Below are positions 1 to 2,262 of a stretch of 13,998 nt of DNA, piece by piece; position 1 is the first letter of the stretch, and each line of letters starts with the position of its first letter. The DNA is taken from positions 1 to 13,998 of the forward strand of contig DXJV01000074.1 in NCBI GenBank assembly GCA_019056785.1, read 5' to 3'. Under the pieces are notes generated by a model that was given only the letters and a program-made list of their open reading frames with translations, was not told where the DNA came from and ran no database searches. The DNA comes from Candidatus Heimdallarchaeota archaeon. GTDB taxonomy: Archaea > Asgardarchaeota > Heimdallarchaeia > JABLTI01. A program made the translations under genes and the position numbers.

Positions 1-114
1 GCAATGTTAATACTGTCCTTTGTTGGTGCCAGCGCCTTTGGCATCAAAACCGCAGTCGCAGGCCGAAACTCCGGCGGCTTCGATAACGAATATGGTGACG
101 GCTCAGGGGGATAA
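1..114 (+). CDS. Small putative secreted peptide (5' end probably truncated by the window edge)
   Basis: Frame 1 reads AMLILSFVGASAFGIKTAVAGRNSGGFDNEYGDGSGG*, stop TAA at 112-114. A hydrophobic stretch is followed by an A-V-A signal-peptidase-like site. It is followed by a hairpin and T-tract. Not in the ORF track because it is short. Confidence 0.6.
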   Translation, partial: AMLILSFVGASAFGIKTAVAGRNSGGFDNEYGDGSGG

Positions 115-148
115 ACCCCTAGCCAACTCATATCTTTTCTTTTTTTTT
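100..148 (+). terminator. Hairpin plus T-tract terminator after the small peptide ORF
   Basis: ggct(c)agggg-gataaa-cccctagcc stem at 100-124, then ttttcttttttttt at 135-148. Confidence 0.6.
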
Positions 149-150
149 AA

Positions 151-1893
151 TCATATTTTCCATAAATGTGCTTCAAATGAGTAAAGCTCATCCAAAGGAA
201 CGTACCGAAGAATTTTTTGTCTCACAGTGAATGTTTCAACCTCAAAACCCCGCTCAACAATAAAGTCAGAAAGCATTTTTGCTATTTTATGGTTACTATC
301 AAGGCCCATAACCCTGACAAGCATCCCATCAAATGTGATGTTATACCCTATCCAACTGAATATCGCCAATTGATCTATCAATTTATTGAACTCCGCTGTT
401 TCATTATCACCCTTTATCTTTATAATTAAAAGATCCTTTAACGAAATCACTGACGGCGTTAATACAAGCCTGAAATTAATGAGATCCTTTTCAATGGCCT
501 CATTCCTAAGTTTATTCATAAATGACAGAAAATTTTCGATTTGATTAAAGTCAATGTCATTTTCTTTTAGAAATTCTTGTAGCTCTATACCAAAACCGGA
601 ATAAAGCGAAGGATTTGTTAGGCTGTGTGAGCGGTAAATTGAGATAAATTTTAAGAGTCTTTTTTCATTAAAGGTGAACTTGTGTGGAAGTTCTTCTTGC
701 AAAAAACTATTATTCCATGTTACAAGCTTGATACATTCCTTTTTTCCTTCCAATAATTCCTGAAAACTCTCTATTGTAGGTTTAAAATTCTTTTCAACAA
801 GAGCAGTCATAAAAATTCGATCTTTGAGAGGTTTAATTTCAAAGTAATCGAGAAAGCCTTGGTTTTGTCTTTTTTCCATGCGCTTTTCCAGAGAATTTGC
901 CAAGACGTGGGGGCAAAGCATTAAAGCATAAAAATATCGAGGAGAAACGGGAGAACCTTGGTAAATAATATCAATGTAAGGATTTTCAAGAAGATCTTTT
1001 TCAATAATCTCAGTTGTTTGACGCTTCGATTCTTTTATTTTGATAATGATTGTGTAATAATGTAATCCTAGTTTGTAAAAATTCTTTTCAACCCAAAATT
1101 TTGCATTATGAATATTGGCAAGTTTGACCAATTCTTTTGAAATAAGTGTATAATCGAGATCAAGCAATTGTTCTAGGCTTGATAGAGTAGCACTTATCCC
1201 TTGTTGCAAAATACCTTTTAAAACTTTCAAAGTAATTTTTCGCATTCTAATAGGAGCAATTATTTGCTCAGGTTTGAAACTTAAATAATCATTAAATTGT
1301 TCTAAAATTTCCAATTCTTTGTTAACTATCTCATCAAAATCATTAACAAAAAAGTGAAATGTGTCTAAAATTAACTTAAAAGGAACTTTTTTTGAAGTGA
1401 TTGACACCGAGAGAAAATAGAGAATTTCCAAGAAAGATTTTTTGTTAACCTCAATTCTTTCTTCAGCTTCAAAATATATGAATCGATAGCGAATATTATA
1501 TGCGCGAGAATCAAATTCCCTTCCAAGGTAATTCTGTTGCATTTTACTAAGAGCAACGACATTTAGAATATAGTGTGACAAAGAAAAACTCGGATGGAAA
1601 AGTAACCAATCCTCCATAAAAAAGGCAAGGGCCTCACGAATTAAAACATGTTCCCAGAGGGTTTTTTGGTATGTTTCCGGTGAAAGATCATTAAACCATT
1701 GGCCAAAAGTTATTTTTTTTTTTGTACGAATGACGCCATATGTTGGCCCGAAAGTTGGAGCCTCACCCAAGGTTATTTCAACACTATCTAAATTGCGTTG
1801 TAAGTCCCAATCTGTTTCTTGCTGAATTTCAGCAATTAATGTTTGTAAATGAGACCTAATCTGCTTGGGTGTGAGAGGCTGCTCAAGTTTCAT
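151..1893 (-). CDS. Large Lrp/AsnC-like winged-helix transcriptional regulator with tandem wHTH + RAM/ACT-like modules and an N-terminal extra domain
   Basis: Long ORF; ATG at 1893 (MKLEQPL) is preferred over TTG at 1917. HTH-like TLKVLKGILQQGISATLSSLEQLLDLDYTLISKELVKL is followed by the Lrp-type linker NFYKLGLHYYTIIIKI. A second, degenerate module begins at FTFNEKRLLKFI. Confidence 0.6.
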   Translation of the reverse strand: MKLEQPLTPKQIRSHLQTLIAEIQQETDWDLQRNLDSVEITLGEAPTFGPTYGVIRTKKKITFGQWFNDLSPETYQKTLWEHVLIREALAFFMEDWLLFHPSFSLSHYILNVVALSKMQQNYLGREFDSRAYNIRYRFIYFEAEERIEVNKKSFLEILYFLSVSITSKKVPFKLILDTFHFFVNDFDEIVNKELEILEQFNDYLSFKPEQIIAPIRMRKITLKVLKGILQQGISATLSSLEQLLDLDYTLISKELVKLANIHNAKFWVEKNFYKLGLHYYTIIIKIKESKRQTTEIIEKDLLENPYIDIIYQGSPVSPRYFYALMLCPHVLANSLEKRMEKRQNQGFLDYFEIKPLKDRIFMTALVEKNFKPTIESFQELLEGKKECIKLVTWNNSFLQEELPHKFTFNEKRLLKFISIYRSHSLTNPSLYSGFGIELQEFLKENDIDFNQIENFLSFMNKLRNEAIEKDLINFRLVLTPSVISLKDLLIIKIKGDNETAEFNKLIDQLAIFSWIGYNITFDGMLVRVMGLDSNHKIAKMLSDFIVERGFEVETFTVRQKILRYVPLDELYSFEAHLWKI

Positions 1894-2016
1894 GCTTTGC
1901 ACACTAACTAATAACAAATAAGTAGCTATAAAAAAACTCTCTCTTATATCTTATGGAAAAAGAGCAGAATGAACACATTAGAAATGTTTTTATTTTAGTA
2001 TGTCTAAAATATAATT

Positions 2017-2168
2017 AATCCGTCAGAATTTCTTTGACGGATTCCCTCTCTCCCCACAAATAGACGTTTGTTATTTTTCCAATGAACGTCTAAAATCCCT
2101 AAAATTTCCTTTTCCTGGACGGCTGGGATTCTTCCCCCGTCCAGTTTTAATTCCCCCAAGTGGAGAGA
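2017..2168 (+). ncRNA. Putative structured non-coding RNA (three hairpins plus an enclosing helix)
   Basis: H1 2017-2043 (11 bp including a G-U pair), H2 2061-2092 (12 bp including 2 G-U pairs), H3 2115-2144 (8+4 bp). tctctcc(cc)ac at 2047-2057 pairs with gtggagaga at 2160-2168. The G-U pairs form only on the + strand. A TATA-like tttttatt lies at 1987-1994. Confidence 0.5.
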
Positions 2169-2262
2169 AGGTTTACACATCTCTTCGTAATAGAGTGATA
2201 TATACAGGTAAAAACAGATAGTGTGATTTGACAAATACCCAAAGAATCAGTTTAAACAATAT

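Follow-up and report, generated by a model that had tools for sequence, protein, structure and literature searches.

A peptide gene and a regulator-like gene linked in Heimdall-group Asgard archaea: a candidate for archaeal peptide signaling

Introduction

Does a very short open reading frame (ORF) at the edge of a contig from Candidatus Heimdallarchaeota archaeon encode a peptide, and does that peptide act together with the large protein encoded convergently beside it? The window considered here, meaning the whole stretch of DNA that was analyzed (13,998 nt; contig C76 of genome G000, G000:C76:1-13998), opens inside the short frame, here called PEP, which faces a gene for a 580-aa protein, here called BIG. 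A preliminary description, made from the letters alone, had proposed that PEP yields a secreted peptide sensed by its neighbor. PEP and BIG very probably constitute a functional module, and sequence comparison makes the pair a credible candidate for archaeal peptide signaling; a circuit of peptide ligand and receptor is the reading that we tentatively favor.

Gene-encoded peptide signaling through a cytoplasmic receptor-regulator occurs in Bacillota and their phages, and our search of the literature found no archaeal description of it, nor any description of the PEP-BIG pair. If the favored reading is true, the closest archaeal relatives of eukaryotes would gain a communication system, and ~130 large proteins and ~120 clusters of mini-proteins, all unnamed, would gain a function. 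The two genes and their parts are as follows.

1..114, plus strand: PEP, 3' part (codons 12-48 and the stop codon); the first 11 codons are found at the C5 contig end, in the same assembly
106..148, plus strand: PEP 3' end signals; GGGG/CCCC hairpin round the stop codon at 106-119 and oligo-T tract TTTTCTTTTTTTTT (T4-C-T9) at 135-148
151..1893, minus strand: BIG, a regulator-like, cytoplasmic protein of 580 aa; the gene is convergent with PEP, the two stops 36 bp apart
1258..1893, minus strand: BIG N-terminal domain, residues 1-212, zincin-like without HExxH; modeled alone by AlphaFold2 with a predicted local distance difference test score (pLDDT) of 92.9
154..1251, minus strand: BIG C-terminal part, residues ~215-580, two tandem Lrp/AsnC modules (winged helix-turn-helix, HTH, plus RAM) by Foldseek and profiles

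The peptide gene

Because the window begins at a contig end, the plus-strand frame at 1-114 is open at its 5' side; it reads ...AMLILSFVGASAFGIKTAVA and then GRNSGGFDNEYGDGSGG, with its stop at 112-114. Taken together with contigs C5, C10, and C66 of the same assembly, the complete ORF encodes 48 aa starting MKKISPK, and no longer in-frame ORF lies upstream of it. The short ORF with a basic n-region that the preliminary description had expected was therefore found, and the extension over hundreds of codons that it had weighed as the opposite outcome was not. The peptide consists of the basic MKKISPK tip, ~19 hydrophobic residues, and a Gly-rich acidic tail. On the end of C5, its start is preceded by a GGAG ribosome-binding site 8-13 nt upstream and by a TATA-like box TTTTAATAG ~55 nt upstream.

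PEP had also been credited with its own terminator. The hairpin and T tract are present in the window, in the C66 copy, and in a decayed copy on C10; a scan for bacterial-type terminators did not flag the PEP 3' end, but oligo-T tracts are the usual archaeal termination signal. The distance from the PEP stop (112-114) to the BIG stop (TGA, 151-153, minus strand) is exactly 36 bp, as first reported. Between these convergent stops (window 115-150), the oligo-T tract occurs on the PEP strand only; the BIG strand lacks one, and BIG transcripts may therefore run antisense through PEP.

Relatives of PEP were sought in 40 related genomes, comprising 10 of the same genus, one from another genus of the family, and 29 others of the class. 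All 10 same-genus genomes and the other-genus genome of the family carry PEP, with 2-5 matches each; the 29 other genomes gave only two chance-level matches, both inside long ORFs. The related frames are 43-50 aa long, and their ATG, GTG, or TTG starts share one alignment column. They follow a common plan, in which MKK[ILV]NPK leads into ~15 hydrophobic residues; a pair of small residues (GG, SA, or GS) and a short amphipathic segment come next, and then a Gly/Pro/acidic tail that often terminates in GG. Within orthologous clusters, pairwise ratios of nonsynonymous to synonymous substitution (dN/dS) are 0.22-0.44 overall and 0.2-0.56 in the tail, excluding one saturated two-member cluster that yielded no value. 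Judged by these comparisons, PEP is a real gene under purifying selection.

Several other identities were considered and set aside. Complete 48-aa ORFs rule out the C-terminal membrane anchor of a large protein; the dN/dS and start-codon evidence argues against a noncoding repeat; and a precursor of a ribosomally synthesized and post-translationally modified peptide was dropped, no modifying enzymes being found nearby. Rfam models gave nothing relevant over positions 1-2400. Public databases hold 122 clusters of PEP-like proteins, none with a Pfam family; those that are named are all "hypothetical" and come from Heimdall/Asgard metagenome-assembled genomes, except one labeled Thorarchaeota. 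A feature search of the ESM Atlas with the peptide returned only unnamed clusters, below 0.8.

Linkage and co-diversification of the pair

Within the family, BIG homologs are present wherever PEP is, in 11/11 related genomes, and they are present in 0/29 of the other genomes of the class. For the analysis of linkage, 30 loci were fetched from 12 genomes, all of one Heimdallarchaeia family, and scanned with profiles of both proteins. Every full-length BIG gene (30/30) has a PEP gene 21-1072 nt away. This is more than the shared gene order of close relatives, because the paralogous clades share only 19-26% identity. The preliminary description had named a survey of regulator homologs as the way to check its proposal, and the outcome is in its favor: each assessable BIG has an adjoining small membrane-targeted ORF, and the class of peptide tail tracks the BIG clade. 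Within the genomes searched, the two-gene module appears in only one family of Heimdall-group Asgard archaea. Two generic double-Lrp proteins, taken from the weak tail of the BIG profile, have no peptide-like ORF adjoining, and the peptide link therefore seems specific to BIG, as far as only two cases can indicate.

The pair has also diversified together. Nine BIG clusters can be distinguished, each with its own peptide-tail class and gene arrangement; examples of tail classes are GG[FW][DE]xE[FYW] (the cluster of the window), GDPT..P.PP.DDGGG, and DDTG[IL][FWY]. Distances among BIG proteins and among PEP peptides are correlated (Mantel r 0.84; 0/2000 permutations reach it). Between the window's PEP and its closest ortholog the signal part is unchanged, and all differences fall in the aromatic/acidic core of the tail. 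Single genomes hold 3-5 paralogous pairs with distinct tails. At locus L032 (G010:C45:35607-39963), two BIG-PEP units stand in tandem, each BIG 35% identical to that of the window and the peptides nearly identical, which shows that the unit was recently duplicated as a whole.

Gene arrangement differs by clade. In clade A, which includes the window, PEP is convergent and 21-63 nt downstream of BIG, and some members have a second PEP upstream; in clade B, PEP is mostly divergent and 280-1072 nt upstream, with one subclade co-directional at 105 nt upstream. These layouts bear on an alternative in which BIG is the transcription factor of PEP (and of a small RNA described below) and nothing more: the peptide would work outside the cell or in the membrane, in a surface, antimicrobial, or stress role, without being a ligand of BIG, and what BIG senses would be another ligand, such as an amino acid bound by its RAM domains. 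Divergent genes sharing a 280-375 nt intergenic region, as in the B clades, are the classic layout of regulator and target, the RAM domains of Lrp/AsnC proteins normally bind amino acids, and orphan peptide copies in unrelated contexts fit as well. However, the convergent A clades, with the genes 21-63 nt apart, do not have such a layout, and this account leaves the dead peptidase-like domain of BIG and the clade-specific tails unexplained; the weakly positive complex prediction for BIG and PEP also counts against it. We consider it unlikely, and return to the ligand/receptor circuit with the properties of the putative receptor.

The large neighbor

BIG lacks a signal peptide, and nowhere is it sufficiently hydrophobic to span a membrane (maximum KD19 1.38). 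Its family is a small one: 1.84 billion proteins yielded 136 representatives, and the single relative with a record name is a hypothetical protein of Candidatus Heimdallarchaeota archaeon. An AlphaFold2 model built from a 26-sequence alignment reached a pLDDT of 89 and a predicted TM score of 0.82. The earlier designation of BIG as a winged-HTH regulator is borne out by this model, which matches tandem Lrp/AsnC winged-helix proteins, but not by Pfam, in which BIG finds no family at E 0.01 or better, HTH_AsnC-type and AsnC_trans_reg included.

The model of the C-terminal part contains two modules, each a winged HTH followed by a RAM domain with the order beta-alpha-beta-beta-alpha-beta. For this part, Foldseek recovers NirDL (4ch7, E 1e-6) and Lrp/AsnC transcription factors (probability 1.0); LrpA (1i1g) matches BIG by profile at E 0.004, and the weak tail of the BIG profile consists of double-Lrp proteins that carry HTH_AsnC-type. 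It could be argued from the same matches that BIG is not a DNA-binding regulator at all but an Lrp-fold enzyme or chaperone, as NirDL/AhbAB are, handling the pre-peptide before export. The top Foldseek matches of BIG are indeed the siroheme decarboxylase NirDL, and Pfam HTH models remain below threshold on BIG. However, a NirDL match is expected for any fused double-Lrp protein, BIG matches HTH_AsnC-type regulators and LrpA by profile and sequence, and it shows neither a modifying-enzyme motif nor HExxH. An enzyme or chaperone role therefore seems very unlikely.

The ligand/receptor circuit places peptide binding in the N-terminal domain. The top rows of an exhaustive VIA-align structure search with this domain are zincins (thermolysin with Z 7.1 over 182 residues, DPP III, M1 aminopeptidases, BepA, and selecase), the zincin rows covering ~180/215 residues with a Z of only 5-7.1. 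Named matches in the ESM Atlas are YgjP, SprT, WLM, and M48, with TM 0.31-0.38 by query and an overall Atlas range of 0.31-0.49. Foldseek against the PDB found nothing at E 0.001 or better with this domain alone, and a PDB sequence profile gave nothing meaningful. The HExxH motif occurs in 0/26 aligned BIG members, whose helix has [RK]-E-[AS]; the metal-binding histidines being missing in 26/26 members, the domain is not a protease, and if it is a zincin, its sequence indicates that it has lost the metal site. In active zincins the fold holds peptide substrates, and the modeled domain could bind peptides.

Export signal and cleavage site

The hydrophobic stretch of PEP runs from I8 to I26 (19 residues, KD19 2.40), its n-region MKKISPK is basic, and family members retain small residues at -3/-1. 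The preliminary description had placed a signal-peptidase site at A29-V30-A31. In the window copy and its closest orthologs this motif is followed by Gly, but most family members read A-[IV]-[AS]-Pro at the same position. Proline at +1 blocks signal peptidase I in bacteria and eukaryotes, and cleavage at A-V-A is therefore doubtful. What is conserved instead is a small-x-small site near residue 23, where A21-S22-A23 aligns with AGG, SGG, TGG, or AGS in relatives. From the alignment, this is the better cleavage candidate, and a cut here would free a tail of ~25 residues. A type IV pilin-like (class III) signal was also considered and dropped: the motif [KR]-[GAS] before the hydrophobic stretch is absent from the family, in which the residues are N/S-P-K with no G/A/S at -1.

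The sequence is compatible both with a PEP that is cleaved and released and with a single-pass membrane mini-protein. In the latter case, uncleaved PEP, with its N-terminus inside, would recruit, sequester, or modulate BIG via the cytoplasmic tip MKK-x-N-P-K. A 19-residue stretch with KD19 2.40 would suit such a protein, the MKK[ILV]NPK tip is unusually conserved in all clades for the n-region of a signal peptide, and most members have Pro after the A-x-A motif. However, the part on the cytoplasmic side would amount to only ~7 residues, which do not vary among clades and leave the distinct tails of 3-5 pairs per genome unexplained, and the conservation of small residues at -3/-1 suits a cleavage site. 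We regard the mini-protein explanation as distinctly unlikely.

Complex prediction and proposed mechanism

One complex prediction was run for BIG with PEP, both given as alignments, together with three controls. The median score was 0.39 (runs 0.39, 0.56, and 0.07), against 0.00 for the best of the 3 controls, with a partner pLDDT of at least 34 and a contact agreement of at least 45%. In calibration, the mark was reached by 58/80 solved complexes and 2/110 mismatched pairs, but scores of 0.60 or under include just 7 of those 80 and both of the mismatches, which makes this a weak pass; the output gave no interface. The modeled complex lends weak support to binding of the peptide by BIG. The original suggestion that the peptide is sensed by its neighbor is therefore partly supported: the regulator-like character of BIG and the linkage argue for it, and the complex prediction (0.39 versus a best control of 0.00) supports it weakly.

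In the favored circuit, the steps of export, cleavage, re-uptake, binding, DNA binding, and action on targets would, we infer, run as follows. PEP would be made as a 48-aa pre-peptide, whose basic tip and hydrophobic segment would target it to the Sec pathway. It would probably be cut after A21-S22-A23, freeing a tail of ~25 residues with a clade-specific aromatic/acidic core GGFDNEYGDGSGG. This tail, or a trimmed form re-imported by an Opp-type peptide importer, would bind the catalytically dead zincin-like N-domain of BIG, whose two Lrp-type modules would then alter nearby transcription; the divergent small RNA and PEP itself are candidate targets. At least 9 OppA-type binding proteins are encoded in the genome. 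This reading is favored because it accounts for a disabled peptide-binding fold, selected clade-specific tails, several private pairs per genome, layouts like those of Rgg/SHP systems, and plentiful Opp-type importers, and we put its probability at roughly 0.4.

A number of points weigh against it. The model needs both release and re-import of the peptide because BIG is cytoplasmic, and permanent membrane anchoring of PEP is possible because its hydrophobic stretch is 19 residues long. The match of the modeled N-domain to zincins is moderate (Z ~7, TM at most 0.49), if uniform in theme. DNA binding by BIG is not certain, because its best C-terminal structural match, NirDL, is an Lrp-fold enzyme. 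The complex score lies in a range where passes without a strong prior are more often wrong than right, and co-inheritance of the pair as a unit could alone produce the Mantel correlation. Finally, orphan PEP copies occur far from any BIG gene, in unrelated contexts; the pairing that the preliminary description saw in the window does not extend to every peptide copy, since this genome also holds an identical orphan copy and a decayed one.

Although these organisms are hard to grow, the hypothesis lends itself to direct testing in vitro, since it involves only small, well-defined parts: the tail of 25 residues, the domain of 212 residues, and ~120 bp of promoter with the small RNA.

Comparison with known systems

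One close parallel in organization is the RRNPP group of Bacillota and their phages (Rap-Phr, NprR-NprX, PlcR-PapR, and AimR-AimP). There, as here, the gene for a cytoplasmic receptor-regulator adjoins a pro-peptide gene of ~40-60 codons whose product carries an export signal at the N-terminus and specificity in the C-terminal part (in PEP-BIG, the signal and the receptor role are putative), single genomes hold several paralogous pairs with pair-specific peptides, and Opp-type importers are available. The parts differ, however: BIG has neither a TPR domain nor an Xre-type HTH, but a zincin-like domain without HExxH and two Lrp/AsnC modules. No TPR fold appeared among the structure matches of BIG in fold searches with its AlphaFold2 model, and because the TPR receptor is absent, the pair is not a member of the RRNPP family. 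The host also differs, being an Asgard archaeon, in which export, processing, uptake, and binding are putative. By analogy, PEP-BIG may work like RRNPP systems; it would follow the same logic as bacterial peptide signaling with different parts, namely a dead zincin domain and a double Lrp.

Each half of BIG has relatives of its own. Like Lrp/AsnC (feast/famine) regulators and the fused double-Lrp proteins, NirDL/AhbAB among them, the C-terminal 365 residues repeat winged helix and RAM twice; unlike them, BIG has an extra zincin-like N-domain of 212 residues, and its sequence is too diverged for Pfam thresholds. The N-domain, judged from its model, resembles zincin-HTH fusions of the IrrE/ImmA type and minimal zincins (YgjP, SprT, WLM, M48, and selecase) in being a small zincin-like domain, joined here to putative DNA-binding modules, but it differs from them in that metal-binding histidines are absent from 26/26 family members. 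IrrE/ImmA proteins combine a zincin domain with HTH modules and cleave repressors; to our knowledge, they are not known as peptide sensors.

In layout and peptide form, PEP-BIG also recalls the Rgg/SHP systems of streptococci, in which peptide and regulator genes are divergent in groups I and II and convergent in group III (PMC13361665). The same two orientations are found here in clades B and A, respectively, and in both systems the peptide is short, its basic tip joined to a hydrophobic body. However, SHPs are ~20-35 aa long and their hydrophobic C-terminus is the signal, whereas the hydrophobic segment of PEP gives way to a hydrophilic Gly/Pro/acidic tail; the fold of the Rgg receptor is unrelated to that of BIG.

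The small RNA and the promoter region

Upstream of BIG, two further elements can be distinguished.

1894..2010, no strand assigned: shared promoter region of BIG (minus strand) and the small RNA (plus strand), with a conserved TAGAAAnnTTTTTAT box before the RNA (alignment by eye, 7 genomes)
2011..2175, plus strand: structured, multi-hairpin small RNA (sRNA) gene, divergent from BIG, with compensatory changes in two hairpins

A covariance model of the sRNA has exactly one strong match per genome in 7 genomes, always 0.1-1.8 kb upstream of a clade-A BIG gene and on the opposite strand; the homologs are at loci L030, L032, L033, L034, L035, and L040. One subclade has other genes inserted between sRNA and BIG. 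In its own genome, BLAST with the sRNA found this copy only. Weaker matches of the covariance model (G000:C60, G009:C45, and G006:C142) do not lie beside BIG genes and were discarded. From its position the sRNA may be a natural candidate for an output or target of BIG, but its link to BIG is weaker than that of PEP because it represents one orthologous locus in related genomes. An extended scheme may be drawn, in which an exported peptide, a disabled-peptidase/double-Lrp receptor, and a dedicated sRNA switch make up a three-part cell-to-cell circuit in Asgard archaea, with 3-5 private channels per genome; it is speculative, and in our estimate improbable. If the scheme is true, Archaea would have their first peptide quorum-sensing-like system, one that belongs to the lineage closest to eukaryotes and is assembled from parts unrelated to the bacterial ones.

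Short shared words were also observed near the gene starts. The word AAAAATGCACA occurs ~110 nt upstream of the PEP start in four genomes (L004 at ~1355-1375; L030, L033, and L035), and is partly palindromic (TGCAC-N-GTGCA) in two. TTGCACA occurs near the starts of both PEP and BIG, at window ~1897-1903 in the case of BIG. The operator search thus returned inverted repeats and shared words that were not robust enough to call an operator; as sequence motifs, AAAAATGCACA and TTGCACA may represent a putative one.

Other copies in this genome and the assembly around them

Stretches of 105-150 nt from the start of the window recur, with 97-100% identity, where C5 ends, where C10 starts, and at C66:4-150, and a further copy inside C10 is 77% identical. 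The 5' half of PEP terminates contigs C5 and C10, and the 3' half opens C76 (the contig of the window) and C66; an exact repeat of PEP thus breaks the assembly at four contig ends. With each half present on two contigs, the genome must hold two identical copies beyond the assembler's resolution. C5 is to be joined to C76 because the resulting gene order (NUDIX-GNAT-PEP, BIG on the other strand, sRNA, HSP20) recurs in relatives, and because the decayed copy on C10 matches C5 in its 5' flank and C76 in its 3' flank. With C5 joined to the window, the second copy, across the C10 start and C66, is by elimination an orphan.

This orphan (G000:C10:1-138, minus strand, and C66:4-150, plus strand; loci L003 and L002) is identical at the DNA level within the gene, and when the 3' flank is included its first 148 nt are 97% identical. 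On one side is an operon of ribosomal proteins (L1/L10) and on the other an unrelated gene for a 283-aa protein, which has no Pfam family and is unrelated to BIG (hhalign probability 0.3). The third copy (G000:C10:6392-6520, minus strand; locus L005, ~1380-1740) is decayed: one C has been lost in a CCCC run, the frame is broken after MKKIS, and the tail is GGWEDEYGDGNLG. Its 3' flank holds a remnant of the 3' end of BIG, and the whole PEP-BIG end must therefore once have been duplicated there.

Two more paralogous BIG-PEP pairs are present in this genome, both divergent, at G000:C5:15385-17596 (L043) and G000:C98:131873-134112 (L042), with peptide tails ending in DTGLW and GDDGQ, respectively. 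The pair on C5 lies only ~4 kb from the peptide gene of the window's own pair.

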